A DNA stretch of 63,336 nucleotides, counting the filler, from Choristocarpus tenellus KU-1152 (Eukaryota; Protista; Phaeophyceae): NCBI GenBank assembly GCA_964200185.2. It is 9 parts of 9 records of this genome, joined end to end, with 100 filler letters (N's around TTAATTAATTAA, not from the genome) between each part and the next. Parts side by side here need not be neighbours in the genome. Positions count along the whole stretch, not along the records: positions 1 to 2,888 come from CAXNAD020023910.1; 8 more parts are not named here. One strand, 5' to 3'. Below, one piece after another: positions 1-60,883 of this stretch. Numbering within the stretch: position 1 is the stretch's first letter; every line of letters starts with the position of its first letter. Under the pieces are notes generated by a model. That model did not search any database and was not told the origin of the DNA. It was given only the letters and a program-made list of their open reading frames with translations. The position numbers were made by a program, and so were the translations under genes.

Positions 1-73
1 AAAAAGTGGCACCCTCTAAGTTTTTGAAATACAAAATCTTAAATTGTTGGACATACGCATTCTTAAAAACTCT

Positions 74-450
74 AGAGACGACAAAAAGGGGTTATTTGAG
101 TTTCGAAATGCCATTCCACACTTCGAAACAACTCAAGGACACCCAAAACACGTGCATGAGGATTTTTAGAAATAGTAAATCCAGTAATAACCGTTCTTAC
201 CATTTTCGAAAATACCAAGCACGCACTTTATGGGTCTCAAACGTTTCCAATTTCCATAAACTAAAAGGTCACTTCCAACTGGTACCCACAATTTATTTAA
301 ATACTAAAACCGCTTTTCAGCGACCTTAGTATTTTTGAAAATACAAGAGACGACAAAAAGGGGTTCTTTTAGTATTGAACAGTCGTTTGGTTCTTCAAAA
401 CTCAAGGACACCCAAAACACCTGCGTTAGGGTTTTTACGAAATAATAATG
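74..450. repeat. Imperfect ~105-bp direct repeat pair (about 74-180 and 347-450) upstream of the ParB-like gene
   Basis: The blocks GAGACGACAAAAAGGGGTT and ACTCAAGGACACCCAAAACAC each occur twice at the same spacing. Confidence 0.75.
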
Positions 451-764
451 ATATTCTAATCTTTACATCAACAAATATAATTACAAACCACATCCTTCAT
501 TGATGCAATATGTTTCAAACGTACGAAACGAAAAGGTCACAAAAAAACATTTACTCTCTGTCTCTTTTCGGTATGAAATCGTATGCTGTTCGATATTCGT
601 ATTTATTATAACACAATTCTCAAGGGAAAGACAAATCTGAGCTTGAAGACAGACCGACAGCAGCACCTCCCATCCCTCAGTCCTCCTTTCAATTCATTCC
701 CTTCTGTACATACGACGCGGACCTGTTATTTATCGATCCCTGTCACACCCTCTCAATTTTCGCC

Positions 765-2888
765 ATGTCCAGCATTCCCTCAACAACAACCCACCCGACC
801 GTCGATGGCCCTGCCCACGGATGGAGAACGTGGGACAGCTATCTGAAGGGCATGTCATCACTCCTACAAGATCACTATCTGGGTACGTACCGGATGAAAC
901 TCAGCAACATCAGATGCACGGAGATGGTGCGTCCACTAAGCGAGAGTGGCCTTGCGCGCGTAAGCAAGTCCATCCACGAGAAAGGCTGGCTAGAGCAGTT
1001 TGCTCCGTCTATCGTAATCCAGCGAGACTGTTTAGGTAATGGGGACCAACTCACCGCCGAAACTGTGCTTACCATTCAAGGACGTACACTGGACGGAAAC
1101 CATAGAATAACGGTGCTAAAGAGAGAGTTTGATCCCGAACGCGCTTTCATGATGCGGGTCTACATGGAGTTCAACCAAGCAGAAGAGAGGCTAATTGCAA
1201 ACGGTGGGTGATGGAGTGTTTTCGTTGTTCCATGATCGCCTGATGACTGTTCTGATGTACAAAGTTGTTGCAGAGTTTCCTTACCTTGGTTCATCGTCAG
1301 TCAGTCCATTGAGGATCTTTTCGTTGTTGATCTTTTTATCCCTCGTGGTATTTCTGTCCGCAGCAGCATGTTGCTCTGTACTGCATGCCGCGTGTGACCC
1401 GCGACCGCTCCCCACCTAGCCCTTGTCCCATTTGCCCACTGGACCGCCACGCCTATAGCATTCAACGACGCGACTGAGAGTGTGGTTGAGCGCACACTGT
1501 ACGATAAGATATTTTTTCACCACGAGCTCCAAGAATCTATCAAGCGACAGACAAAGAAAAAAGAAGTGTCAATAGTAGGGATCCGTAACATGTATGAAAG
1601 GGTGACGGAGTTGTCAACGTTAGTGGGATGGTGGCGCTATAGTCCTCCTCCAGTTGGGTTACAGCTGTTGTGAAATCCCTCTGTGTCCTCCTATTCTACC
1701 TAAGTTGATATAGTTATCCCGCGTTTAGGAACTCTGTCAACCAACCTATGGATTTACGGGTAACCAGGTAGTAGTATGTATGTGTGGTTAACCACAGACG
1801 AACAATAAATATACCCTTCTTTGTTTTATCATTAGGCCAGGCCGCTGAATAACACCCCCTCCCACTCATACATAACCCGTTGGCGCGGTAATAATGATGC
1901 CTCATCCTCGCTGACTGGGTGCATAATATTCTTCTTTCTGCCCATTGTGAAGGTGGGCGTTACTCCCCCGCCGAAATCAACTGTACAAAACTGGCAGAAA
2001 GGCATAAAGTCCCTTAAACCAGAGTCCTTCGAGGTACTGAAGGAAGTGTGTGAGAGCTCGGCACCACAGGTAGACTGCTACGCAGTCACACTGACCTATC
2101 TCAGGCGCGACAGGTTTGCCGACTTCACTTCTCTCAAGCAGGGGCTATGCATCCATCTGCTTGCTAGGCAAGTCAAACCGCCATTGTGTTTTATTGTGTA
2201 GACAGCAGTAAGCGCAATGTATGCAGGTCGCAGCACATTGCACATTGACGTGAAATAAGTGTCTCCTACGTTGAAGAATATTGTCGGTCATTGTTGTGTC
2301 GAACGAAGCACCCTTCGTAGTATCGTGTAGATTCTACCAACAGTGTGTGTTTCCTGTTTATATGCGCTGTTGTCTGTCATGAAGTACAACAATCGATCCA
2401 TGAATATTTAATGCATGGACCTTTCGTCATCATTACCTGCGCATCGTTCTCGTTGACGTCGTTCATTGCCATTCTCTTTTTGCAGATACAAGTCGTTCAA
2501 CGGGAAGGTTCCTACGGTGAGGGACTACAAGGAGATCAAATCGGACGTGCACATGTCTGAGATGGTTGTCTCGCGCACGAAGCAGATTGTGCCCAAGGAG
2601 AAGTGGACACCAGAGCTTCAAAGGTTGGTAAATGGTGGAAGTTACAGCGGTTATCTTCCTTTTTTCCTTTTCCGCATCTCCTGTGCACCCATACGTGGCC
2701 ATGCGCCCCTCAATTGTAAAATATACTGTCAGCATATTTTTCGGCACCGCACTTATTGACTGTTGCAAAACTTTTTTTTGACGTTACGTGAATGATGCAC
2801 GGGCTGCCAGGGAAATGAACAAGCTCGCATATGAGAAGGGCAATATGCACGACATCTGGGTCAAGCCCCACCACGAGGAGAGGAAGAG
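765..2888 (+). CDS. Spliced ParB/Sulfiredoxin-fold protein with HTH-like segment, 3' truncated by contig end; exons 765-1203, 1459-1601, 1953-2167, 2486-2623, 2811->2888 (about 337 aa visible)
   Basis: Exon phases join without stops (donors GT, GT, GC, GT; AG acceptors). Translation contains VRPLSESGLARVSKSIHEKGWL..APSIVI...LDGNHRITVLK...AEERLIANAFND, matching the ParB/Srx N-domain pattern (R..l..l..SI...G...PI.V...DGxHR...N), then PKSTVQNWQKGIKSLKPESFEVL, which resembles the ParB HTH region. Confidence 0.75.
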
Positions 2889-4785: not shown

Positions 4786-4819
4786 TTAGGGTTAGGGTTA
4801 GGGTTAGGGTTAGGGTTAG
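4786..4819. repeat. Interstitial telomere-like (TTAGGG/CCCTAA)n tract; others at 5684-5709, 6482-6599, 22864-22898, 22968-22986, 23389-23406, 46328-46354, 46581-46604, 47993-48030, 49881-49906, 50351-50378, 50788-50808, 51081-51091, 51313-51333
   Basis: Directly visible 2-6 unit tracts, mostly intronic. Confidence 0.95.
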
Positions 4820-5883
4820 TATGCGGATCAAAACAAAGTTAGTAGCGTAAACGCGGGCAAGGGAGGTAGAGGGTGCCAATAGGGTGGAGAGCAAGAACAA
4901 GAGGATAGCGTCAAGCTCTTCCTGTTGTTAACAAAGGAGTATGTTGAGTATCCGGTGCATAATGTTGAGGTTTCCTCTACTCTCAGAGACATACTTTGTT
5001 CATCTGTGCTTAATCAGTCCCTCCCCCAAAAAAAGACACACTCCTGTGTAGTAGTACTATGTAGGAATCAAACATCTGGCCATGCTCAGGGGGGACCCAC
5101 TGCTAGGTTCGAAACTTGAAATATCTTTTGGGCAGAACAATTACAAAAATCAGTACAGTTATTATTATGAATTACCCGCTGTACTTCACATGTGTACTGT
5201 TTTCAATTTACTGTATTGTATTGTATTGTATTGTATTGTATTTATGTATTGTATGCATTGTATTGTATGTATCGAACATCGAAGGTTCACTACACTGGGG
5301 TATACTTCAATGGTACACTTGGAGCAGATCAAGAGGTGTTATTTGAAGCAACAAATATATTGCAAGTCAACAAACCAAAGAATCCATTGTTATTAATTAG
5401 CACTGTTATCATTTATTGCTTTACCTTTAGGCAGCTGTCGACCCTATTGTTCGGAGTCCCGGGAGTCCCAGGTGTACCTAATGCAGCGTAGTCATGAGGG
5501 TGGCAACACCCCTGCAGGGACCAGGGAAGAACCAGGACCGCACCAGAAAAAGGGTTATGTGGGGGGGTGGGGGGTGGGGGGTGGGGGAGGGGTGGCACCA
5601 GACCAGGTGTAGAGGATCAGAAAGTGTTGTGATATTGGACAAAAAAAAATGAATAAAGCACGGACAGACAAAGAGTGATGTGTCTAACCCTAACCCTAAC
5701 CCTAACCCTGAGAAGAGTGTTTCCTTTTGTTTCTAATTGTTCTGAAAAGGATGATGCTTGAGACATACATATCTTGAAGTCATTCTACATCAACCACGAA
5801 TTAATTTCTCAACATGTAAAAAAAAAAAGTGAAACTATAAAATGGTCACGGTGTGGGTTTCATCACCTTGTCATGGGCTTTAC

Positions 5884-6198: not shown

Positions 6199-9100
6199 CG
6201 ACAACATTAGTAACAGAGATGGCGTATAGACTTGATCTCTAGCGGAAAACTATCGGAAAACTATCCCAGGAAACAGAAACGGCTTTCTAATACCTGCACA
6301 AAAAGACACGTGAGCAGAAGGGTGATTTGCACAGTACATACCCATGAGCAATAGTCCCTCCTCATTACAAAACATCTTACCCCATACGAGGAGAGGCAAT
6401 TTGAGGGTTAGGGTTACGTTTTCTGCAGTACCCATTTGCCATCATACCAAGTGTTCTCGCATTAGTGTGTGGACCCTTCATCCCTAACCCTAACCCCAAC
6501 CCTTCTAGCGGTGATTGATGCAGCTTTGCCTGTTCAACCCTAACCCTAACCCTAACCCTCACCCCAATCCCGATGTTGTGCACTCGAGGGTTAGGGTTAA
6601 GTTTCACCAAGAGGATTGAAAACGAAAATCTAGCTGAACAGGGAAGACAGTCAACCACCAACAAAAAAATTAAAAATTAAAAATTAAAACAAACACCCCC
6701 CCCCCGCCACAGTACCTGTCAAAAATATCACACATAGATATCACACACANNNNNNNNNNNNNNNNNNNNNNNNNNNNNNNNNNNNNNNNNNNNTTAATTA
6801 ATTAANNNNNNNNNNNNNNNNNNNNNNNNNNNNNNNNNNNNNNNNNNNNGCGGTGGTGAAGAGACCGTATCACCAGGCACATTATATTAGCACATGTATG
6901 CTAAAGGTGGTTGTTCATCACATCATGTCACGCTTTCATGAAATGGATTTATTGATCATCATGAAATGACTAATTCCATCCTAAAACAAAAAAAAAGAGA
7001 GAAGAGAAGATTCAACTCTACCACCAGGTAAGAGATGGAGACTTCAGGTGAGCCATACATGTTATTTATTCTTTATTCTTCACGTGGCATGACCCCCCAA
7101 CATGATGTAATGACCGTACAGTTACCTCGTATCGTTTTAGGAGAGTTGAGCCACCAACGTGTAAGTTCATCCGAGTTGTTCACTTGGAAAATTATTGTCG
7201 TGAGCAATATTTCCAATCGAAGTCAGAATTGAGGAAGGAGAATGGGTGCACACATTTGATCTAGTCATTTGCTGTGTTGATTTGATTGCGTAACACGCGA
7301 TGTTGTTTTCATGCATCAGAGTGGTGATCAATCAAATCATCGTACCACACTTACAGCAATGTCAAATCACAAACACTAGTCAAATCGTTTTGTTGACATC
7401 GTGTATAGTGTTTGCTCCTCGTCTCCCCATTCTGAGTATATCCTCTGTTTTATACAAGATACTAGAGACCCATATGCTGGCCACATATACCTCTTCCCTC
7501 GTCTTTAGGCTGATTGATATGCTGATCCCATACTCTCAGATCTCGTTCGTAAGCTTGATTGGTGTGCTGACTACACACCATCAACCTTTAGGCTATGTTA
7601 TCCTGATCGGATGTACATCGTTAGCCTCGTTAATATTGTATACTTCATCTCGTGTTAATGGAATTGTGTAATACAATGGTGCAATAGTATACTAACAATC
7701 ACACATGTTTCCCATTTCGCCCTCAGAGCTCACCTTTTAGTTGGCCTTGAATCATGTTTACATGACTTCAAGGCTGATCAGGGGGGGGGGTAATGTGGAA
7801 AGCATGTTTGCCTGTAATTATACCGTTATTGCCGTATGCCATATACTGTTATACCGTGGTACTGATTGAGGTTCCCAGTCAAGCGTACATGATTTCACTG
7901 ACAGACTTTCGGTCAGAATGTCACACATGGAAGATCCACTTTATTCCCACGTCTTGACTGATGATGAAGCCCCACCTTTGATGTTGCTCATCACTCCTAA
8001 GTTTGCATTTGTCCAATCTTAACCTCGTACCCTCGGTCACGGTTCGTCCTTGTTCGTGTGGTCTGTCATGCCCGGTGATTCTCTTCACCACCCTTGCTTG
8101 CCTGAGTGAACCATGCCGCCACAGAATCACAGGTACCCAAAGTTGCATTTTAAGGATACTGACATAATGTACATTGGGCTTTTATGCTAATCCTTTCTTG
8201 ATATTTTCTTAATTCTGGTAAAACTTCTCATCAAACAATCGAGAAATCGACATTCTCAATTCAAACTTAGTGTCAGGGACAGGTTCCTTTTTTGGGATCT
8301 CCGACACACACCTTATGTATAAGACGCGCGGTCAGATACAATTGCGCGCGCCAAACACGTCATTTGAGCTCATCCATATCGACCAGTCCAAAGAAACAGT
8401 CACTTTCATGAGATCCGGATTTGACCAAACAGCTAAAATGGATCCTCAGAACGAAGAACCATTCCGATCTGACGAATCCATTTCTTTGCTGTGACGTTGC
8501 TCAGTCATTCTGGAACATCTGTCATGTTCTGAAAAAGTTGTTCTGTACTGGATTTACTGATCTGTTATGAGATTAGAGCCAAGACCTTGAAACTCGGTCT
8601 CACCATCTGAGGTGAAAGAGTTTCTTTCCGGTGATTGTGATTGCCCCCTTAGAGCAGAGAACTTGGCACCTTTAACACTTCCACATTAGCATCCATAGAA
8701 ATATGTGTGAATTATAAAAAATTGAAAAACTGATTCAAAAAGAAAAATGGGCTTTGATTCAGTGTGATTTGGACTGATATACTTCCATGACTCTAAGTTA
8801 GACATAATACAAGAATAGGTTTAGTACGGTGATGAAGAGAAGAGCTTGCATACCAGTCGAATGACTCAACAAGAATAGAAAAGGCACAACTCACTCTTAT
8901 AAAGTTCCAGAAAGGCAATCAATCATAGCAATCATCAAGAGGTTCCTGCTTCCCCAAACCTGACCAAGTACATGAAAAATAATGACACTAATAACGTCAC
9001 TCTATCCACACAACCCCCATTCTTGTCGGATAGATTGTTCCAAGAAGTTTATGCGTAATGTATCAGAAAACGTTTTTTTACACATGCAAGTATTAAGGTA

Positions 9101-9943: not shown

Positions 9944-11065
9944 TCACACGTTCAGCGAGTACATAGGGTCAGGGTGAAAGTATCTTAGATGGTACGAGTT
10001 TTGCCCAGTTTGTCCATTTCGGGCTTGGCTTCCCCCAGGGGGTGGTCTTTGGCTGGTTAGGGTATTGTAGGTGCAATAGAAGAGTGTGGGGATGGGTAAG
10101 TGTGTTCTGCAGTGGGGGCATGTGAATGGATGGTTGGCATCTTCGCAGAGGCTGACCATGCAGTTGAGGTGGAGCGAGCACCCACAGGGGAGGGTGCCTT
10201 GGTGGTCTGGGGGGAGAGACTCTAGACAGCCGAGGCAGGGAGGGAAAGAAGGGGGAGGGGTTGGGGTGTGAGGGCGTTGGATGGAGAGTAGGCGGAATGG
10301 TGGGATGGCAAAAGGGGTGGAGGACGATTGTGAGCGGATGGATTCCAGCACTGCTTCGGTTCTCACACTCCCCTCCATGGCGGCGTAGTAGTGTTCGGGG
10401 CTGACAGGGGTACGATAGGTGGGGCATGGGATGGGATGTAGGGGTCTGGCGCGGAGGTATAGAGCCAAGGCACAGCCCAGGTCCAGTGAGTGTGTGCAGG
10501 GGAAAGGGAGTGCTGGCTGTTGTATCTCGGAGAAACATATTGCACAGTGTTCCGGTGTAAGCTGACGTGGTTGTTGGGATGGGCAAGGGTTGGGGTCCCT
10601 GGTGGGGGAGGCTGGCCTTCGAAGCCCCGTAATATTTCTGATCGCCTCCTCTCCTGCCTCCTCCTCCTCGTGGCCGTGTAGGGGTGAGTCTCTCTCCCTG
10701 CTACCATCGCCGTGTGCCTCAGCCATCTCTCCAACTCCATCCCCTTGGGTGCTCGTTCGATTTTCCGTCCAGGCTACGCCATCCTGTAGAGCCGAAACCT
10801 GTCTACCTATTCCCAAAGAGGAGTGATGTACTCTGCTTATGTTCCCCCCTTGCCCGTGCCTATCTCGTGAGCCTCCATTCCCATCCTCGATCGCCTCGAC
10901 CTCGTCCCCATGTGGGCCCATTCCGTTCTCTGTCCATCCTTCTCCATTCTGCGAAATCGAGACCTGGGTATCTATTCCTGGAGCTGGGTTAATCCTTCCA
11001 CTAATATTCGGTCCTTGCCCTTGCCTGTCTCGTGTACCATCGTCACCTTCCTCCATCACCTCCAC
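9944..11065 (-). CDS. Intronless ORF with ~55-aa N-terminal repeats and two RING-like zinc fingers (first degenerate); C-terminus runs into a MITE fragment, possibly a pseudogene
   Basis: CAIC..PCTHSLDLGC..CPTYR and CLGC..PCGCSLHLNC..CPHCR; repeated RDRxGQGxNIS...QVS...WTEN units. Confidence 0.6.
   Translation of the reverse strand: MEVMEEGDDGTRDRQGQGPNISGRINPAPGIDTQVSISQNGEGWTENGMGPHGDEVEAIEDGNGGSRDRHGQGGNISRVHHSSLGIGRQVSALQDGVAWTENRTSTQGDGVGEMAEAHGDGSRERDSPLHGHEEEEAGEEAIRNITGLRRPASPTRDPNPCPSQQPRQLTPEHCAICFSEIQQPALPFPCTHSLDLGCALALYLRARPLHPIPCPTYRTPVSPEHYYAAMEGSVRTEAVLESIRSQSSSTPFAIPPFRLLSIQRPHTPTPPPSFPPCLGCLESLPPDHQGTLPCGCSLHLNCMVSLCEDANHPFTCPHCRTHLPIPTLFYCTYNTLTSQRPPPGGSQARNGQTGQNSYHLRYFHPDPMYSLNV
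9972..10036. mobile_element. MITE family A terminal fragment
   Basis: GGGTGAAAGTATCTTAGATGGTACGAGTTTTGCCCAGTTTGTCCATTTCGGGCTTGGCTTCCC matches the starts of the copies at 22300, 22464 and 28944. Confidence 0.8.
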
Positions 11066-11323
11066 AACCCCATTTCCTCCTCCTTCAACCTTAGATCAAT
11101 TGTCCTTTTCGATCATGGTGTAACATCAGTATAGTGTAGGTTATATCGACAAGTATGATTTGTTCACGATTTTTTGGTGGAGTATCATTCATCTAACCTT
11201 CTCNNNNNNNNNNNNNNNNNNNNNNNNNNNNNNNNNNNNNNNNNNNNTTAATTAATTAANNNNNNNNNNNNNNNNNNNNNNNNNNNNNNNNNNNNNNNNN
11301 NNNGGGGGGGGGGGGGGAGGGGG

Positions 11324-18254: not shown

Positions 18255-19905
18255 TTTCCTTGTAATAGAAGACAGTGTAATTTGAGGATAAAAGGGAACC
18301 TATATTAGTCTGAGTCTTGATGGAGCTTGCAAAGACTGCACTAGTGTTGTTGCCAAGGTCTGGTATGCTCGTCTTCAGTATACAATCATAGTGATTGACG
18401 TGGTTCAGCACCCAGAGTTTAATATATTGACCAGTGGTTGCCCCGTCCACTTACTGCACCATTTAAGGTTGTATTCCTCTTGTCCTTGCACTATCGTCCT
18501 ATCAACTCTCGATTGTGGACTGATCTGAGGTGAAGAAGTAGTATTCCAATGAGCTTGCCGTTAAGTACTCTGCACACTCCGCAAGTCAGAAATTAAAATG
18601 AAACATATAGCCGGTCAATTGGGAAGAATTGGTGGTGGTCTTCACCCTACATTCCTTTCCACTAGCCTTTTTCGCTTTCTCTGAAGTCCTTGGCCGATAT
18701 ATCGCAAATATCGACATCGTGACATTTTCAATGTCGATATTTGATTTACAATCATCAAGAAACTGGCGAGGGTGTCTGCCTTGTAAGGAACCTCTTTGAC
18801 ATCTACACCACGAAGATGAAAAGACCTTATTCAACCGTGGAGAGTAAGCTGGTTTCTACCACTAACACCTGGAATCTTCAATGTCGAGAGAACCAGAGAG
18901 TGTGTTACACACGAAATATCTTGATGGCGGTTTCATAAATGCCACTATATGTTTATTAGTTTAGTCATTATCATGATGACCCATTCATTGAGGGGGTGTA
19001 TGGTTGCCAGTTTTGTTTATACCCTGATGATACTTATGAGGTTGAATAATCGAAGTGAGAGATCCAGCATACATGACGACATGTGCATATGGAGCCTTGT
19101 ACGTTGTACGAACTTCATGGTCCACATATATTCTTATGGATTGGAGCTGCATATCCCATCGTGGTAAAGCTTGCGGAGAGTTTTGTAACAAGAGCGTCTC
19201 TCAGCACATCCATGACAAGCCTGGACAACAACTCAGGGAGCAAGCATCTGGTGCAAAATGGTTCCGCAATGACGCAAAATAGTTCGAAAATAAGGTAAGA
19301 AATATTCCACTTGGTGTTCCCCCGTGTTCCTGAAGAAGACCCACCTTCTAGTACATATGAGTGTGTTATATTATTGATATTAATTCTGTGCTGCATGTTT
19401 GTGTTTGGAGGTTGCCACAAAAATGATCTGCATTATTTGATATTGCACGTACAAACTAACAACGTGCACACACCATAATAAACCCAATGAACAATCCTCA
19501 TAAAATATTGTTGAAAGAAGGCAAGTAGATTATACTTCAAAGTATGTATTATACTGTATATGTTGGATATTGGAATAAATCGTCTAAAATACCTTTCTAC
19601 CTCTACCTTCACAAAACAAATGTTCCTTCTAAAATTATACACGAAAGTTCTTCGGATTAACCCAGGTTCAAATATCCAAGTTTATGGAAGATGAACTTAT
19701 TGTAAAGTGCGTATAAAATTACGACCACACCATTGTCAAGAAAAATTATATATATCTTCAGATGATATCGCAACACCTACATCCACAATGAAGGACAAGG
19801 ACAAGATCAACAAACACCTTGTTGTCACTACCTTTCCACTCTCTATTTGGATATATATTTTGCAACAGCGAAAATCTTTCTCGAGACGTCAACAACACCA
19901 CGACG

Positions 19906-22219
19906 ATGGGCAGCCTTCCACGGACTACGTACCTCTTGGTGCTCCTGATCTCAACTTCTTGCCCAACACAATCTGATGACACCACAATGTGCGAGTCCGA
20001 TTCCTCCATCAGTCCCTTCGCTCCCCTGGCCAGAAGAGTCACCGCCTTCGAGAAGCGCCAAGAGGCTGCTCAGGCCGAACTCGACCTCAGCCATCGGTGT
20101 CATAACAACAACGGCGACGAGGAAAAATATCCATCGCTGATCGGCAACTTCCACAAGACCTTGCCCCACAATGAATACGGAGAGGTGAAGCCCTTGTTGA
20201 TTCCATGAACGGACATCGATGATGATGCAAGCGCGCATATGTTGTTGGGTGTACAGAATGGGATTGGATGGCTAATATAATACTTGTTGGCGTGCGCGCT
20301 TTTCCTGTTCGATTATTGTGGTCTTGGGCATCCTCTTCCCTCCAGGTATCGAACCCCTAATGCTGTGCTGAAGAAGAGTAAAAGATAATCACATGTGGAG
20401 ATAGGAAGATGTTCTGCTTAGGGTGTTACAGTATGCTGTGGGCACCAATCTCCTTTATAGTGGAAGTCAAATTGACTCCAGCCTTGACACATCCTTTCGG
20501 CGCACACCTTTGCCCCCTCTCTATCTACATCGTTCACTCACAGGTAGATACCGAGGCCTACGATGTACTACTAAATTGCCTGTCCTCAGGGGATTTCTCC
20601 GAGTGTGATGATATACCGGGAGGACCAAGAAAGCTGGCAAATCCTTTGGGAGGACTAGCTTTCCAGATGCGAGGACCTGACCCGTGAGTTTGGGGTCATC
20701 TTGTAGAATTGAACCTGCCCTCGATACTCTGCTTCCAACGACGTGGTGAACTTCAACGCCTTGTTTGTGCTCACACCCATTTTACGGTTTATCAGTTTTC
20801 TGGACGATCAGCACTTACATAAGTAGCTGAATCTAGATGCACTCTCACCCATAAAGTTTGGCAGTTTTTGTGGCGTTTTGTCATCTTTTCTAGATATGTT
20901 TTTGTCCTGCGCACAATATAGCGTTAGCTGGGCTACCTGAACAAATCTACATATATGGGTAGGAAATATGTTGGGGCCCACCTAAGCCTGTCCTTACGTT
21001 AGGGCTGGGGTTAAAGTTAGTCATAGGGTTTGGGCACTGAAAACATTAATCCTACAAGGTTGAGGTAGGGAGCAGCAGTAACCCGAGACAACAGAGCATT
21101 GTAAGAACGAACCAAATACGTGTGAGGACAGGCTTCACACAAGCAGGGTACTCCACAAGGAAGGACTACAAGTCCATTAGGTCTCTAACGATGGACTATG
21201 GAAGTCTTACATTAGGAGGATATTCGCGGTACATTGCTCAACCATATATTAATCTAGTATATCAGTTAAATCGAAACGCCACAGTTCAAATCTGCCTTTG
21301 CTAGACAACCTTCTACACCAAATGGCCAGCTTGTTGACCTTACCATTGTCATTCCTCGCCTTCTCTTCGCTGTCCATTCCAGTCAAGCAATCGTGATAAG
21401 GCCACCACCAAGCCTGGAATCTGCACAACTGGCGGCCCAGATGGCTGAGGTAGCTTGGATATGTTGCATCTAAGATTCCTGCGTCTGTTGCATGTGTCCA
21501 TCATCAGGTGTTCTTCTATAATACCGAAGCTCATACTCGGGGCATATTCTGCTTTCTACTGTGCGATAGAAAGCTTGACCCTGACCTACTGCCCTCGTTC
21601 CAACGTGAACTTTAGGAGACTAATGTTCTTCTTCTCAGTCAGGATGGAACTCTAGGACCTAAAACATAATCTACGTGTTCTCTTTAACGTAATCTTTCGT
21701 CCCTTTTAAGTAGTTAGCAAGTGCTGAAAATATATCTCAGTTGGTGTGAAACAGTATGTGTTCGTACCCACCATGTATCCACCTCCTTTCAATGCCCCCA
21801 CGAAAGGTGTACTGGATGTCATTGCTCCGGGACGTGCCCTTCAACGAGTATGGTACAAATAAACTGGCAAAGAAGGCCGCAGGTGAGGTGATGAGCAGTT
21901 TTGATTTGTTGATATCGTAGGGGTGAACTAGAATCGGATACATAGTTTCTTTTGACATGGACTACGCCCATATTGCAGCAAATTAATAGAAGGCCCAGCA
22001 TGCCATAATAGTTGTCTTCATTAGACCTGCACCCTTTGCTCACAGACTCCTTATTCCCTGTATCAAAACCCCTGTATCATTTCCACAGAGAATCTTGCCA
22101 AGATGCCTGGATACTTTGGCTATGGTCGACCTGTAGACTCTGATGGATCAGTGGATCCCGCTAGCCAACTCTTCCGAACATCGTTCCCCGGGGTGACTGA
22201 GGGACCACACGTGTCACAG
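19906..22219 (+). CDS. Secreted vanadium-dependent haloperoxidase (brown-algal vBPO/vIPO type), N-terminal half; exons 19906-20184, 20544-20683, 21383-21449, 21807-21882, 22089-22219
   Basis: Signal-like YLLVLLISTS; NGDEEKY..GNFHKTLPHNEYGE|VD; LANPLGG; AQLAAQMAE|VYWMSLLRDVPF; DPASQLFRTSFPGVTEGPHVSQ. The vanadate-binding C-terminal half lies beyond the contig end. Confidence 0.92.
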
Positions 22220-22610: not shown

Positions 22611-23994
22611 NNNNNNNNNNNNNNNNNNNNNNNNNNNNNNNNNNNNNNNNNNNNTTAATTAATTAANNNNNNNNNNNNNNNNNNNNNNNNNNNNNNNNNN
22701 NNNNNNNNNNGGGGGTAGAGTTGAAAAATAAAAAAAAAAAAAATTGAGGGGGGGGGGGGGGGGGGGGGGGGGGGTGAACAGAGAGAAAATTATATTCAGT
22801 AAATGTTGCAGGGCGGAGAGTAGGTAATAGATCGCGTGTCATTTTTCTGGCACTCAACATTGACTAACCCTAACCCTAACCCTAACCCTAGCCCTAATCA
22901 TAAAAAACGTTGAGGACACACAATGAACTTTAGTGCCGCTAACTGGATTCTGGGTGTATCGGTAGCTGGGTTAGGGTTAGGGTTAGTGAGCTATAGTACC
23001 ATTTTGTAATTACCTGCATAAATTTCGTGGGTTCAAACCTCTTCAATTCGTGGAAACTATGTATGTTAGTGTATGAAGAGAGAGTACTACAGGTAGAAGG
23101 GAAGGGGGTCGGTATGACAATAGATAGAAGTATCCACCCTTTCGCATCTAGCAGTAGCTACTAAAGTGTCTCGGGTACTTGACAATCCCAAACCTCTTAA
23201 AGCTACCTGCATTCTACTGTCCCTGCACAATATGGTGTTCTTGAGGTGTAAAAGATTGGGTATGCCACAGTCCGCAGCCTCAAACAAGTCTTGGAAATGT
23301 GGTTAGAGGTAGAATACAGTTTAACTACAGCAGATTGATAAATACAATAGATTGAAAAACAAAGTTGGCAAAAAAGACGAGGTCCAGATAACCCTAACCC
23401 TAACCCAAGACAGTGTTTCCCCCCAAAATATCATTTGCTTCACAACACCCACTCATAGAAAAAACTAAAACAGGTATACTACTCATCAGGCAATGCCATG
23501 TCAGAAGATCTATGAGAATATTGCGCTATTGAAATTATTGTGGGGATGCTAATAGAGGGATGGGCATGTTCTACGTGTCACAGAGACCAATTCACCACCT
23601 AGTTCCACAGTTGTGCACTATTTGAGTTATCCTTGGCACAGGGAAGATTGTATAGCTAGGACTGTATTTCTAGTTTTTAACAAATATGTAATGTGTATCT
23701 GTGCTTGGTGAACACCGAAAGGCTGCATAGATTAAGTACAAATACAGAATCATATCATGTGCAGTATAATGAATATGACTAGAGTCGAACAGTGTTACAG
23801 CCAGAAGAGTAGTTGTTTCCAAACAGAGCATAGACTGTATTTCCAAGCAATGAAATAGGGTGGGAAACAAAATCGATTCTTGCACAAGAAGGTATCTTTG
23901 CTTCAGCTACCAGTTCCGTAGCATCCCCAATCCCTAAATGTCTACAAAAGTCCACAAACTAATTTATCAACCCCAACCCTAACCACCTACCTAC

Positions 23995-25043
23995 CTTTCA
24001 ACAACGTTGCTGAAGTGACTGTTGCCAGCATCCAGTCCTGTGTCAAATATTGCCACCCGTACACCCTGGCCAGTATACCCCTGCTCCCACAGCTTCTTTC
24101 CCTCCAGTCCTGCACGCCTAAAACGTTTGCCGGGCGAACTCCGTAGAGCTCGAGTACGAGATTTTCCAGTGGACATGCTTCTTTCAAACAAATGCCGCGT
24201 CGGTCCCTCATGTGACAGAATCTGTTCCCACATCTTGGTATTCATGATTCGCCTTTTGCATGCTGCATCACAGTGAAGTTCGAAATGGAGACTCACCTGA
24301 TCACTGAAGGCGAATGAACTAGGATGACGTCGAACCTCCCATGGAGGTGTTTGGTTTCTCCCAACACTCCAGATGTGTGCCCCTCTCCGCGACCCGGGGT
24401 CTCCTTCGGGAATCGAGAAGTGATAAGCACTGCTGGAAGGTCGAGAGGTCTTCGCCCTCGAGAGAATGAGTACGTTGGGTACTTCGTCCACGCCTTTCGC
24501 GTCTCGCTCCTTGCAGTTAGTAGTGGCACTCAAACACTCCCTAACATGGCCTACGCCTCCCCTTTCATCCTTTCCTTTAGCTTCCACTTTCCGAATGTCA
24601 AAATCCATCAAAGCAAGTTCATTATTAATGATGCTCTGTGGGAATACGCCGATGACTTCTTCACTTGCCCTTAGGGACTGTAGGGCAGGTTCCACCAATC
24701 TTTTGTCAAGACAAAACCCCTCCTGTCCGGCACGGAAACGCACTAAGGAAAAGTCGCTGGGAAATCTCGAGGTTGCCGCATTTTCGCGGCGTACATGCTC
24801 CCAATAAAATTTCACAGGAGAAGATGATACACCCCACCTAAATGATGTCCAAGTGTGGGGATTGAAGCCTGTTAGTGCTGAACTCAAGAGGTCATCATGG
24901 TGCGAAATAGGGTGGTATGCTGTCCACTGCACCACAAATACGGCGGAATGAACGCCATCTTCGACAGCTGCCTGGGCGAGATGTCCGAGACATGTCCACA
25001 GTGCAACCAACAAGAGGGTATGATGGCAAGGTGTCCTTGACAT
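23995..25043 (-). CDS. MBTPS1: Site-1 protease / SKI-1 subtilase (S8 family), first exon: signal peptide, prodomain, catalytic Asp region
   Basis: RRENAATSRFPSDFSLV and LWEQGYTGQGVRVAIFDTGL..NSHFSNVVER closely match S1P ([30 protein letters not shown]); GT donor at 23994. Confidence 0.85.
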
Positions 25044-25717
25044 ACTAATGAAAGCCTTTTCATTACACTATTTGGTTTGAAATCAAACGATTAGATTACA
25101 AGTTTTGTTTTGAACTCGTGGCCCCAGAGCCCCCCAGAGCAGTCCATACCTCGACTTATAGAGGTATGACACTGCAGTACCTTCACCTATTTTGTACCAA
25201 ATATTATATACAAATCCCATTTTTGTACCGCTTTTTTCGACATACTAAAAAAAATAGGCTTTTGTACCGGAATTCTCGTATTCGGGCGATTTGGTACAGA
25301 ATCGGGGAGATATTCACGTGATTTTGGCGCGCGCGTAAAAATTTCTCGCAAAAAGTGCCTTTCTTCCTGAGTCATTACCACACNNNNNNNNNNNNNNNNN
25401 NNNNNNNNNNNNNNNNNNNNNNNNNNNTTAATTAATTAANNNNNNNNNNNNNNNNNNNNNNNNNNNNNNNNNNNNNNNNNNNNGTGTAGACTCTCCCCCC
25501 CCCCCCAGATACTTTGGGTCCCTACTGTAAAGGGGAAAGGTCTGGACTCCAAGACTTTCATGCGTGGGTAACATTTTGTAATTGTTGGGTGGAAATGTGT
25601 CCATGTTGGTACAGTCTGCAATCGTGTCATTCGAGTCCAATGGAAATAGACATGCTTGTGTACATTCTTTATTATATACACCAATTACAGATTGGACTGG
25701 ATACGCCTGTTTTCGGT

Positions 25718-54935: not shown

Positions 54936-57900
54936 TGCGCAAATTCAGACTACTGGTTATGTCAGTATGGAAGGAGAGAGAATAAAGGCATGGGAGCCTC
55001 ACACGATTCCCCTTTGGTGAAACATGATGAAATAGTTGAAAAGAAGAGTGTATGGTTTAGAAACTGTTGCTTCCAGAAAAAATCACTCACCCTAAACACA
55101 TACACTTCTAGGAAACTCCATCAAGATTTAGAAAACGTTTCGAACATGTCGACATCAAAACCCAAAATTGATTCTCTATAAATATCCCGCTAAGATATGA
55201 ACTACAGCCCCAAATGCTTTCGGTTCACATCATTGTAATTCTAAGTTGCAGTGCAGTAGGCATTTACTTCACTACCATAATTCCTTGACTCACATACTCC
55301 CTTGTGCATTTCAACTTCATTTCTACATGCCCAGTTCTTTCCATTGAAACCCACAGTTGTCCCTGCTTGTATTGCGATTCGGTTATCCCCATATCAAGTA
55401 GTAACCCCTTGTGGTATGCCAAGCTCCCCCAGGATTACTCTGATAAACATCGCGTGTCTCGTCTCTTTTACCATTGCTGTCCACTCTGCTTCTGAGCTAG
55501 ATACAGCTACTACTGCTCCTAGCAGTTTCGACTTCCACGCGATCGTTGTTCCATTGAACAAGAGTGGGTATCCTGTGACGCTCTGTCTCGAAACAGGATC
55601 GTTGGTCCAGTCCGAGTCCCCACACCCGATGGACCCTTTGTTTTCTGTCTCTCCTTCAGTGGGATAGAGTATCCCCACATTTGTGGAGCCTGCAGCGTAA
55701 CGCGGTAAATGTTCTAGTCCCTTCTAGTGTGGCCTGCATTGTGATGAAGCACTGCGATCTAGCTCCCTCACAAAGGCACTGTTGTCACTACCACTGTCTT
55801 GAAGATGTTGAAGTAGTCCACACCGTACCGTTGAGTGAAGCCTGTACCACCAACCTTCTTTTGTACCGTTCAATGGTCCCTTCGGCTATTCGCTTTATTT
55901 CTTGAATACAAACTTGGTCTTGACGGGTTTTCTTCTTTGTGACAAATCCTCGATATATATATATATAAAAATGCTCCTCTCATCCATTCTCTCTTCATCT
56001 CATTCTTGTCTGGTTGCGATTATCTCGCGTCAGACCCTGCGAGGGCGTTTGATATAGAACATGGTTGTTGATGGTTTGGAGATTAAGGAGATGGGGGGTA
56101 AGGTTCTATCCCCAACGAGCAAGAAGTGGGGGGTAAAGGGTGATACTTTTTGAGGATATATTTTGGGATGTGGTATCCCATTCCGAATATTGAGGAATGT
56201 GATCCTGCCATGAAGGTGGAGAATTTTTGGATTCTTGATCAAAAGTGAGTTACCTAAGGAATTTGGGGGAATGGTCCACAGATAAATCTCGAGAAATCGG
56301 AGGAATTTCTACAGGTGAAGGGAAGTATGGAAATAAAGGAGTCAAGCGAATGCGTCAATTGCCAGGAAGAGCCAGAAGGTAACACCTTGTCATTGGAACA
56401 ACATATTAGGCTAGTAACTGTGAAACTTCAAAGGTGATCCAGGGACAACAGTCGTCATTCCTAACGACCTCATCCCTTCACAAGATGATCGATATAACCG
56501 AGGCAATCAGGTCGGAGCTGCGGCTGTTGACCGAGCCTGCGCCAGATGGACGTGGAGCAGTCACCACACTTGTCCTTGAGGGAGCATGCCCATCGATTGG
56601 AGACGCCATGATTCTTGCTTACAGAGAGTAAAAAGAGATCGCTGTACCTTCCATCAAGGGGATCAGGGTATCAGTGGGAGCAGTTAACTAAGCCTCCGTC
56701 AGAGGGGGAAGGAGTAGGTATTTTTGAGATGCTTGCTGCGATGGGACACCTCCACAGCCCCCCACTCGCCTGTATGAGGGCTAGAGTTAGGCCTCCAACT
56801 CCTGAGGGAGAAGAAGCCAAGCAACCAGTCAGTATGGTATGTGTGCAATTTATCTTGGAAGGTACTATTGTCCTAGTTTGCACAGTAAGGCGTTGCTCTT
56901 TCCAAGGTGGTTGTCACAATGGCAGACAGACCTTGATGACTCTCGCAGGGAAGGCACCCTGGCGAGTCAGGTGGTTGGCAAAGTGCTGCCTACACAAGAC
57001 TGGTGAGTCTGGGGAGTGCGAAATACCTACTCCAGCTTCCCATTGTTACCGAAGGTGCAGGTCCACTTTGTTGGTATGACGGTGATGATACTATTGCCCG
57101 TTTCAGCTCCTCATAGATTGTATCGGGTCTTGTGATCAGCTGTGCGAAAAATGTTCGGCGTGGCGTTCTTGATGCCTACTTGCCAGTTTCAGCTACTCGT
57201 AGAATATATCGTGTCTTGTGATCAGCTGTGCGAAAATGTTGGGCATGCGTCCTTGATGCCTATTTGCTTGCTTCACCTTCTCGTAGGTTATATCAGGGCT
57301 TTTCAAGTTGGATTACGAAATCCATACTGTCTGTAGTCAAGGAGCACCGTAGCTCCCAGAAGCACCCTTCCAACGTAATGACTTGCACGGGGACCTCGTC
57401 CTCTGCGCGACCTCCAATGACTCTTTCTAATTCCATCCATACTCCTCTGCCGACTGGATTCTTGTGGTTCTCCAATCGCTCCACTATTGCTGCTGAAGAT
57501 CCTCATATCACTTGGACAACCAGCAGAAACCACAGAAGTGTCTTGTTCTTCTCGTAGATCTCGTGCGCTATTCGTTCCTAGACATCCCGCTAGTGTCTCC
57601 GTGGCTTCAGGGACCACGTATTTTCGCAGCAGAATGTCTTAAAGACCATTTCGACCGGCGTAACCACTCCACATATATTGTGTGCATGTTGTCCAGGTCT
57701 CCACATCCTGGTGGTCCAGTCCAGATGGGCAACTTCTTCACGTCGTTCTCCATACCATTGAGGCTCATAACCTGTGCAGGTTTAGACTGCTGTTTGTGTC
57801 AGTATGGAAGAAGAGAGAAGAAAGAGATGGGAGCCTCACATGATCCCCCTTTACTGAATGTGATCACACGGTTGAAAAGAGAAGAGTGAAAATACTACAG

Positions 57901-58572: not shown

Positions 58573-60883
58573 CTATCGCAGGTTATGCAACTGTGGGAAG
58601 TCAGTGCCAAGGATACTATCCACGCGGTAGTCTTCCTCACCCCCACGGATAGCCTCCAGGCCTTGCAGGATAGGTTCTCCATATATGTCTAGCACAGGTC
58701 TGGTGGTCTCACCAAGAATACCCTGACTATTGTCCCCAAGGACAATTTTCTCAAACACAACGTTCATTTGGTAAGTCACATGGTCCGGCAAGTCAAACTT
58801 ATCAGTGGGGTCTCGCATGGCAACCTGGTGGATCTTGCCATGGTTCAACCTCATAGACAAAAGAGGGGAAGAAATCTGGAAAGAAACATGTTCCGACTGA
58901 TGCTCAAACAAAGAATCATTTGCCACTGCCTTCTCAATGTACTTTTTGCATTCTGCAGGATCTGTCCTCTTTCTGTCCCTCAGAATCCAATCAGACATTT
59001 GCAAGACCTCATGCAGGCGGCGATGGTCTTTCATGATAGAGTCTGTCTTGATCTGCTTTTCAATCCAATATTTTTCGAACCCAAACGGTCTACATTCCCC
59101 TGGAAGATTGGCCCCTGAGATCACGACACTATCTCCGAAGTCAACCTGGGCAACAAGCACAGTTTGAGATGGATTATAACAACAACCCATCGTCGAGACG
59201 AGAGAGAGAGTACTAGTCAACGATATTGAGAGGCGAGAGTATCAATATTCCTGACCGGTGTACCAGAGTAGCACTGTGGAGTATGTTATTTCCTGGAAAT
59301 ATTTATTTCATTTAAAAAAACTAACATCTGCAAAGGAGGAGTAACTGAGTCCATACCTCTCCAGGCTCCTCCATCTCTTGGCCATCAAGCAGCACTTTGA
59401 TTGCCCCTTCTGCAATGCACTTGCTGTTCTGTGGGCAATCAGTCTGTAGGACGTGGGTGTCTGCAACATAAATTTCTACACTGTGCTTTTTGCCACTCTC
59501 TCCACAAAGCAACATGCCTACACCTGTGATGTACGTGACTTGAGGAGTGTCGGGGATAGGCGCAGAAATACGCATGTTGATGACGTTACATATCCCATCG
59601 TTCACGAGGTTGTAGTACGCCCCTTCAAGGCCTGTGAAGTCGAACTTCTGTGACATGAACCCCATCAGATGAGGGTCACCTTCGCCCCCAGGATTGTCTA
59701 GAACAATAGCGTTGGGAACAAGAATAATACGATATATAATATTATTAGATCATTGGTACATGGACAAACTGTCAATATTTTGCAAACAAGATCTACTCCT
59801 AGTTGGTGTGTATGTCAGTGGCCTACTCGCAGTTGTGACGTTGGCAATTGACCAAAAGATCCCCATGCCAAAGAGGTTTAAAGCAAACCAGAAAATATCT
59901 ATTTCCTTTCCCAAAAAAAAACAGAGAGGGGACAATGAACAAAAAAATAAGAGTGTTGGTACAGCGAAGGCATATAGGACGTGAATGTACTACATACGTG
60001 CATTTTGCTTACCACAAACACCAGAGACATCCTCTTTGATGCATAAGCCATTAACGCAAACACAGGACCCCAATGTAGCTCCACAGTCCTGTAATGGCAA
60101 ACAATCGTCATGTGGAAATCTCTTATTCTTGTCGCTGAAGTATAGACTCACTCGATCAAGTAGTAGTCAAGAGTGACTAAAAGGACAGATGTGACGGAAG
60201 CAACAAGCAAGCTACTGCCTATAAAACACCAACTTTAACCCCACGCTTTGCAAGAATGGAGTTAGCACAGCCTGTCAGTCATGTTAGAGTCTTATCCCTT
60301 GCCTCTTCGTCTGTGTCTGCACCACTGTAGAACTCACAGATGGATGGCAATGATTCATCACCGAATGCAGGTAGACATTGCCCTATGTCTCCTTCTTGAG
60401 AGCAGCCCGCATTGATGTGCACTTCTTCTATGTAGCACTGAGATCAAGAATAGGTGGTGAGAATGGTCGGGAAAATTGATCAACACAGCACGTAGGAATA
60501 ACAGAATTGTATCATGCATCCATTACTCATTCTTTAGCGTGTAGGAAATATTTGTAATTTCATAGGAGTATATATGTTGTGATCTGTGTTATTATTTTGT
60601 GGTACTCATTACTTGAATATTGTTGTAACCTGGATTTAAACAGTTGGATAACAACAAAACAAGAACGAGAATATTATAGAAGAGCTTTTCTATAGAAGTA
60701 GCATTTACTATTAGGAGTTGGTGTACTTTATCACCTACCATTATTTAAGTCGATACTTACATCCTCTTGAGCCAAATTGTTGCTGGTGCACACATTTACT
60801 TGTCCATTTGCAAGGTCAAACAGAAGCGCCCAGAGGACCAGAGTGAAGGGGTCTGTCAAACCGAACGCCGTTATTGTTTTCCC
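58573..60883 (-). CDS. Secreted Cys-rich protein with C-terminal GDPH VWD/root-cap-like domain of the Ectocarpus-type family; exons 60883-60761, 60437-60303, 60088-60013, 59697-59357, 59145-58573 (start codon exon not fixed; candidate ATG at 61007)
   Basis: In-frame splicing. Hydrophobic LVLWALLFDLANG, then a Cys-rich segment, then GEGDPHLMGFMSQKFDFTG..NMRISAP..ANLPGECRPFGFEKYW..HQSEH..MRDPTDKFDLPDH..GILGET..DYRV. Confidence 0.88.

Follow-up and report, generated by a model that had tools for sequence, protein, structure and literature searches.

What is a ParB-like gene, interrupted by introns, doing in the genome of a brown alga? The question is raised by a locus of Choristocarpus tenellus KU-1152 (assembly GCA_964200185.2). 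It lies in the window analysed here, a stretch of 63,336 nucleotides made of nine contigs joined with N spacers; the gene is on the first contig (CAXNAD020023910.1, positions 1–2888) and is cut off by its end. A sequence-only reading of this DNA had offered three origins: an uncharacterised nuclear system, the accessory gene of a mobile element, or an endogenised virus. We propose that the locus holds the 5' portion of a spliced, many-copy brown-algal gene, and that this gene belongs, on balance, as an accessory gene to a giant cut-and-paste DNA transposon; its protein would bind the element's own repeats as a ParB-like clamp gated by a nucleoside triphosphate (NTP). The parts of this explanation carry different weights: that the gene belongs to a transposon-borne family of ParB-methyltransferase-like proteins is highly probable, and the self-binding clamp is a tentative mechanism.

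The gene is real, and a spliced ParB-like gene is confirmed at this locus. As the sequence-only reading had it, five exons join in frame, here into 337 residues with no stop codon, and all the motifs that it had named are present in the product (PSIV at residue 81, LDGNHR at 109, ANAFND at 145–150, spanning intron 1, and KSTVQNW at 202). Exon 1 (765..1203; like all the features of the gene, on the + strand) carries the start codon and encodes the greater part of the ParB-like nucleotide-binding domain (R56, S69, G74 and DGNHR at 110–114), and is 88% alike to P0001, the closest relative (CAM9623429.1 of Choristocarpus tenellus). It is followed by intron 1 (1204..1458; GT-AG, 255 nt, phase 1), whose position is common to most members of the family. 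Exon 2 (1459..1601) encodes N149 in a box III-like position, a linker helix and the first helix of the helix-turn-helix (HTH), and is separated by intron 2 (1602..1952; GT-AG, 351 nt, phase 0) from exon 3 (1953..2167), which encodes the second HTH helix (KSTVQNW) and then further helices. The likeness to P0001 is 84% across the GC donor that ends exon 3 and opens intron 3 (2168..2485; GC-AG, 318 nt, phase 2). Exon 4 (2486..2623) encodes a helical domain and, after intron 4 (2624..2810; GT-AG, 187 nt, phase 2), exon 5 (2811..2888) is cut by the contig end, with 26/26 residues identical to P0001.

Over its whole length the spliced product aligns without gaps to P0001 (291/337 identities, 86%), and it is ~52–53% identical over aligned residues to gene models of Undaria (P0002) and Ectocarpus (P0003). 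An alternative GT donor at 2114 is also in frame (319 residues) but loses 18 conserved residues; the GC donor at 2168 is preferred because of the homologue P0001 and of the joints of 318 nt described below. The window gene is incomplete, its relatives extending 150–500 residues further.

Three public runs (X1, X2 and X3, from one organism and one study, the nature of X3 being unrecorded) bear on the junctions. Among the joints listed, only X3 has them at all four introns, the same rows being zero in X1 and X2: they measure 255 nt at intron 1, run from 1583 to 1950 at intron 2 (with 15 diverged letters in between), and measure 318 and 187 nt at introns 3 and 4. Taken against X1, the median depth of X3 is 0.092 across the nine exon bins and 0.015 across the 17 non-coding bins, and that of X2 is 0.377 and 0.23, respectively, contig depth being a poor measure. 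All four predicted junctions are thus seen as joints, from related copies. We read them as spliced forms of these copies, most simply as RNA, and not as proof that the copy in the window is expressed.

Which fold does the protein adopt? Homology searches gave few clues: single exons returned nothing useful from Pfam and PDB sequences, and a profile of 60 sequences ranked phycocyanins first, with SbnI at E 1.1, so the fold is not evident from sequence alone. When members were scanned singly, the matches to several ParB-like families were weak (DUF1015 in 7/60, GmrSD_N in 4/60, DUF6551 and DUF3723 in 2/60 each, DndB in 1/60). Independently, in the Atlas feature space, exon 1 is placed near clusters of ParB_N, DUF3723 and DUF6551 (0.92–0.95; the families being found on 11–38% of the members). 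We modelled Cladosiphon P0025, the fullest relative (843 residues, matched by the window-derived profile at E 5.8e-27), from 104 aligned sequences. Residues 30–420 of the model are confident (mostly pLDDT >80), the middle is disordered and residues 595–830 are patchy. Of the Foldseek rows listed, the best 13 all belong to ParB, Noc or KorB. Residues 38–153 superpose on Myxococcus xanthus ParB-CTPgammaS (7bnr; Z 10.8, rmsd 2.1, 94 aligned) and on Bacillus subtilis ParB (Z 10.8), and longer segments on pNOB8 ParB (29–220; Z 10.1, rmsd 3.8, 161 aligned), KorB (38–312; Z 9.8, rmsd 9.4) and Caulobacter crescentus ParB (39–299; Z 8.9, rmsd 6.6). These longer superpositions, and that on Noc, run through the HTH region and end at residues 220–312 of the model (Z 8.9–10.1, rmsd 3.8–9.4). 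The N-terminal part is thus predicted to be a ParB/Srx fold followed by an HTH region, the order that the sequence-only reading had recognised and for which structure prediction and Foldseek on a relative returned the expected ParB match.

The putative nucleotide pocket can be compared with that of M. xanthus ParB, in which R54, R95 and N127 contact the phosphates, S68 and G73 the base, and Q52 and E93 act in hydrolysis (PMC13229309). Using the ParB boxes as defined in PMC12704722, we mapped these positions by motif order and spacing, not by printed residue pairs. In window numbering, the presumed equivalents are R56 (84/93 rows), R114 (85/93), N149 (17/20), S69 (84/94) and G74 (87/94), the last two from the S...G...P motif of box I; in the GxxR motif of box II, which includes R114, G111 is kept in 92 of 93 rows. 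The equivalents of the hydrolysis residues would be M54, mostly hydrophobic in the family, and N112 (N in 80 rows, A in 11 and E in none of the 93). By this mapping, the family conserves the pocket but not the canonical residues for CTP hydrolysis, which is new here. The conserved pocket suggests that the protein binds a nucleotide, the choice of which cannot be predicted from sequence (PMC12704722).

The domain order of ParB and HTH proposed from the sequence was seen and is only part of the architecture, since fuller relatives (the fullest model having 843–876 residues) add a methyltransferase-like C-terminal domain that lies beyond the window sequence. Residues 594–813 of the P0025 model superpose on beta-class amino-methyltransferases (M.BceJIV Z 10.9, M.MboIIA 10.7, CcrM 9.9, M.RsrI 9.9, M.PvuII 9.8, rotifer N4CMT 9.6), and 24 of 30 Atlas matches of this domain are in the PF01555 set (best 0.92). 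The same domain is found in Ectocarpus P0156 (28% identity to P0025, E 4e-19), and its start is present in P0003, a member of the window copy's own clade (score 100 against P0156, the best of 2000 shuffles reaching 51). In P0025, P0003 and P0090, the two halves are separated by a Cys/His cluster together with a low-complexity linker of acidic or basic character. The C-terminus of the fuller relatives is thus predicted to have a beta-class N4/N6 methyltransferase fold, and the window copy presumably continues into it, through the helical bundle and acidic or basic linker that precede it in relatives.

Does this domain still methylate DNA? The diagnostic motifs of active beta-class enzymes we take to be motif IV, [DNS]PP[YF], and S-adenosylmethionine (SAM) motif I, FxGxG. 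Neither [DNSH]PP[YFW] nor FxGxG occurs in the ten proteins that we scanned, seven of which reach the domain wholly or partly. After the first strand, the alignment has CLNRA, NVGAF or SIGAE, and at the position of the SAM strand FTAESD or FGAEHN; P0155, P0156 and P0003 have no PF01555 match at E up to 10. The motifs therefore appear eroded in all three subfamilies seen, which is new here, and the domain is likely to be catalytically inactive. A P[HN]P[WH] sequence after the second strand is conserved in P0025, P0156 and P0003, which represent three subfamilies, and is possibly a shifted functional loop.

These observations bear on the best-surviving alternative, in which the gene is the same transposon accessory gene with an active C-terminal domain, writing 4mC or 6mA on its own element under the guidance of the ParB-HTH part. 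This is the published proposal for Sola1-1, for which N4C or N6A methylation was predicted (PMC12477816). The beta-class fold is retained across subfamilies only ~28% alike, P[HN]P[WH] could be the catalytic loop in a shifted position, and three subfamilies were seen, through gene models, so that intact copies may exist. The absence of both motifs from all the scanned proteins, the residues that the alignment shows at the two strands and the lack of PF01555 matches stand against this, and we consider an active enzyme unlikely.

Is this a resident gene or a repeat? We aligned contig pieces of the three runs to the window contig at 80% likeness, in 30 bins. The gene's contig attracts 3209, 2442 and 393 pieces in the three runs, counts that are not a copy number, and all 30 bins are covered, introns and upstream repeat included, for the most part by pieces 90–99% alike. 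In X1, 314 pieces are at least 99% alike to this contig, 754 are 95–99%, 1385 are 90–95% and 756 are below 90%. This is the pattern of a dispersed repeat family, in which introns and upstream flank are repeated along with the exons, and not that of a single resident gene.

The proteins tell a similar story. A four-sequence profile retrieved 187 representatives (50% clustering, E up to 0.001), of which the best 150 are listed. Among 20 of these that were looked up, 14 are named, all from brown algae (Choristocarpus, Sphacelaria, Ectocarpus, Pylaiella, Scytosiphon and Cladosiphon). By these matches the family spans the brown algae, in at least seven genera, which is new here. Most matches are exon-sized: among the 93 rows with DGxHR, 71 end near the end of exon 1, 11 go on and 11 end earlier; intron 1 is therefore old and shared. 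Genomes carry several copies. Choristocarpus has at least four proteins on separate contigs (P0001, P0005, P0012 and P0050), and the three Choristocarpus proteins with a ParB domain are 68–74% alike mutually; Pylaiella has six named copies within one 90% cluster, and Ectocarpus CCAP 1310/34 has three copies in one cluster and three subfamilies that are 18–36% alike within this one strain. In many relatives the gene model is broken or an exon is missing (P0003, P0042). The window copy's clade includes P0001, P0002 and P0003, with a FastTree support of 0.967 for 14 rows; in IQ-TREE, run on 28 of the 90 rows, UFBoot is 99 for 18 rows and 77 for the 14. FastTree groups the window copy with the Choristocarpus copies (0.93), where IQ-TREE on those 28 rows gives 46–75 and no resolution. 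The branching inside the clade is thus not settled by the trees, and we claim no transfer or order of events.

The multi-copy introns and flank, the several divergent copies per genome and the absence of a viral locus from the IMG/VR scan and the phage records searched are why, among the three origins offered by the sequence-only reading, we favour the accessory gene of a mobile element and disfavour both the nuclear system and the virus. A domesticated nuclear gene family, derived from a mobile element and acting in chromatin or chromosome organisation, would account for the four spliceosomal introns and for an intron 1 whose position is common to very divergent members. It would also fit the spliced forms and the signs that the frame is conserved (12 of 49 indel rows are listed, and every one of these lies outside the exons, though exons make up 35% of the contig). 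Yet the introns and the upstream repeat are repeated to the same degree as the exons, many relatives are broken or lack an exon, there is no pattern of one orthologue per genome, and spliced accessory genes are also carried by giant algal transposons; host domestication is accordingly quite improbable.

An origin from an endogenised giant virus, or from a virus-like element, is more improbable still. Fusions of ParB and N6_N4_Mtase are enriched in phages (PMC12704722), and the structural matches include ParB-like proteins of Orpheovirus and Bodo saltans virus. However, no relative was found by a pattern scan of IMG/VR or by tblastn among 50,697 phage records (where only two chance-level rows appeared), and none was found in JGI metagenomes. 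The gene has four introns within 1 kb of coding sequence, and both genomes without viral regions in a survey of brown algae are from Discosporangiales, the order of the closest named relative (10.1101/2024.02.19.579948). Lastly, this copy could lack a present function, being a passenger or a gene in decay that a non-autonomous element has amplified. This would suit the many family members that are fragments and the fact that, of the 12 exon differences from other copies with the best support, 7 alter a residue, but it is hardly credible for 337 open codons with all four splice pairs and the pocket residues intact and with related copies that are spliced.

In the favoured explanation, the protein would bind repeats of its own element, and the upstream flank provides candidates. 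Two AT-rich tandem units of ~270 bp lie before the gene, neither assigned to a strand: unit 1, a candidate subterminal repeat, at 4..272, and unit 2 at 277..540. They are recovered by local alignment to each other, by autocorrelation peaks at lags of 269 and 272, and by families D1, D3 and D7, spaced by 268–272. In related copies there are joints of 277–284 nt that skip about one unit. A perfect 12-bp palindrome (202..213) and a related, near-perfect one of 16 bp (329..344), likewise unstranded, are weak candidate binding sites; a motif search for such sites is circular, the pattern having been taken from the sites themselves.

The gene's contig is also less depleted in CpG than the others. 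Its observed/expected CpG ratio is 0.91, compared with 0.29–0.63 on the other eight contigs, which may reflect escape from host methylation. Its two halves have 0.87 and 0.96, above all 38 blocks elsewhere (at most 0.76), and one other coding stretch has 0.87 as well. Among the 18 listed T>C or A>G differences, 7 restore a CpG, where ~5 are expected. We draw no conclusion from the high CpG because the other coding stretch is equally high and the restoration is near expectation.

How might such a protein work? The HTH would recognise the element's own repeats, and the ParB domain would bind a nucleoside triphosphate that gates loading and spreading along the element's DNA, as does ParB at parS. 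By coating its own element, the protein could keep it transcribed or hold its distant ends paired, with the eroded methyltransferase fold serving as a non-catalytic DNA-binding or dimerising module. In its boldest form, the proposal is of a nucleotide-gated ParB-type sliding clamp in a eukaryotic nucleus, which loads at subterminal repeats and spreads over tens of kilobases while the dead methyltransferase fold holds or shields the DNA, so that the element evades host silencing or joins its ends; we regard this version as rather unlikely. If it were true, a bacterial centromere mechanism would have been repurposed for transposon self-recognition.

Several observations weigh against the explanation that we favour, or against parts of it. 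Palindromes upstream of the gene show no enrichment over shuffled sequence (2, against a mean of 0.66, with 14.5% of shuffles reaching 2), and the 2.9-kb contig lacks a transposase, terminal inverted repeats and a target-site duplication. The runs contain 0.12–0.30 of the contig's words and may come from a relative, and the counts of pieces were made without a single-copy depth baseline. The structural model is not of the window protein: in the ParB domain P0025 shares 28% identity with P0001, and the prediction made for P0001 from four sequences is poor (pLDDT 42). The methyltransferase part of the P0025 model has pLDDT of 50–80 with gaps under 50, and P0001 itself stops just short of this domain, with a weak match in the linker whose score is reached by 0.6% of shuffles. 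Gating by NTP is not assured either, because the hydrolysis residues are replaced and because a phage ParB partner that activates a DNA-modifying enzyme tolerates the loss of its NTP-binding residues (PMC13229309). We still take the carrier to be a DNA transposon, as is Sola-1 in Ectocarpus (PMC12477816). A possible physical link to a transposase is offered by the gene model P0120 of Ectocarpus sp. CCAP 1310/34, which joins a segment resembling the core of a DDE transposase (residues ~150–220) to a ParB exon; the segment has no Pfam or PDB support.

The rest of the window has few features of note. A site-1 protease-like subtilase has an exon at 23994–25067 (−) (MBTP1_N, E 1.3e-7), and a stretch at 19792–20205 (+), without a Pfam match, resembles the beginning of a vanadium-dependent haloperoxidase, signal peptide included. 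A GC-rich open frame of 383 codons at 9947–11095 (−) has two RING-like cysteine clusters (zf-C3HC4, E 0.017) and is possibly derived from a mobile element. Two open frames at 58576–59749 (−), with a weak match to Root_cap (E 0.18), probably encode a protein that is secreted or belongs to the cell wall. A stretch at 55397–55723 (−), again without a Pfam match, is presumably a fragment of a Copia-like RNase H. Short interstitial runs of TTAGGG/CCCTAA are frequent on several contigs (4786–4819, 5684–5709, 6536–6564, 22864–22897 and 46328–50379).

Why would this family matter? ParB-type nucleotide switches have been described almost only in prokaryotes, and a 2025 survey gives sulfiredoxin as the common eukaryotic case (PMC12704722). 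Two algal genome papers of 2025 proposed, without experiment, that transposons mark their own DNA through ParB-like proteins. The family supplies many natural variants, a conserved pocket with a mutable arginine and a candidate repeat, which makes the idea directly testable. It also points to a correction, in that the methyltransferase domain could be a pseudoenzyme, and this alters what to look for. The matter bears on how brown algae and their transposons, with little DNA methylation, keep one another in check (PMC12477816); DNMT1 is retained in Discosporangium (10.1101/2024.02.19.579948). Most likely, the family is a new example of a recently noticed class of algal transposon accessory genes, its architecture of ParB and methyltransferase having been in print since 2025 (PMC12477816). 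The literature that joins ParB with algae or transposons, within a coverage that took in few subscription papers, held nothing on the range of the family across brown algae or on its eroded methyltransferase motifs. ParB is not mentioned in the available part of 10.64898/2026.08.24.746577, and a ParB-type HTH is fused to Dam-like enzymes of chlorophytes (PMC4738411).

How does the family compare with known systems? The nearest is Sola1-1_Ec32 of Ectocarpus sp. 7, a 21.5-kb element that encodes, on the strand opposite its transposase, a protein of 1104 residues with ParB-like and N4C/N6A methyltransferase domains, noted as Ectocarpus-specific (PMC12477816). Both are spliced genes in repeated DNA of brown algae with ParB-like and N4C/N6A methyltransferase-like domains (the latter here in P0025, P0156 and partly P0003), and the scale of the repeats is similar (~270–280 bp here, a 282-bp imperfect terminal inverted repeat there). 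Compared by description, they differ in that the methyltransferase of the Sola1-1_Ec32 protein is predicted to be active, whereas the present family has eroded motifs, a fullest model of 843–876 residues and a range of at least seven genera. Sola-1 elements are marked by a 4-bp target-site duplication and by AACCG...CGGTT termini. A protein search for a Sola1-1_Ec32-like relative at 666–2000 residues found none, which is weak evidence. The Plavaka (EnSpm) elements of red algae offer a second parallel: their PAG3, lying beside tandem inverted repeats, has a ParB-like N-terminal domain in a giant DNA transposon and was likewise proposed to bind its own element (10.1101/2025.02.11.637652). PAG3, however, ends in a 2OG oxygenase, with the N6_N4 methylase on a separate protein, PAG2, fused to SET, whereas the relatives described here end in a methyltransferase fold; and the repeats upstream of the window gene are not enriched in palindromes.

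The phage fusions of ParB_N and N6_N4_Mtase have the same two folds in the same order (PMC12704722) and are the likely ultimate source of the family. They differ from it in that none of the phage records searched matches it in sequence, its two folds are separated by an HTH and a helical bundle along with a Cys/His cluster and an acidic linker, and its methyltransferase motifs are lost. With the bacterial CTP clamps (ParB/Spo0J, Noc and KorB) the family shares a ParB fold followed by an HTH, and the pocket residues R, S, G, R and N in the same order and with similar spacing. Unlike them, it has DGNHR in place of GERR, a hydrophobic residue and an N at the hydrolysis positions, a longer insertion before box II, additional C-terminal domains and eukaryotic introns. 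The ParA-binding motif LG[RK]GL is absent from the window protein, and the contig carries no other gene that could be parA. Sulfiredoxin has the same ParB/Srx fold (Z 8.5), and its catalytic cysteine we take to be in a GCHR motif. As the sequence-only reading had argued, the window gene is distinct from it: none of the 93 rows has a cysteine in the G-x-H-R motif, and an HTH and further domains follow. VANC of the VANDAL transposons of Arabidopsis, shown by experiment to bind the non-coding regions of its own element (PMC5735166, PMC10398659), is a functional analogue, with no homology implied. At a greater distance, DUF3723 (PF12520), listed as cargo of the fungal Starship elements (10.1101/2021.12.13.472469), is a neighbour in the Atlas (0.92; the family on 31% of the members) and the best of its two matches among the 60 members has E 0.061; this is a shared clan and not membership. 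Eukaryotic giant elements may have recruited ParB-fold proteins more than once.

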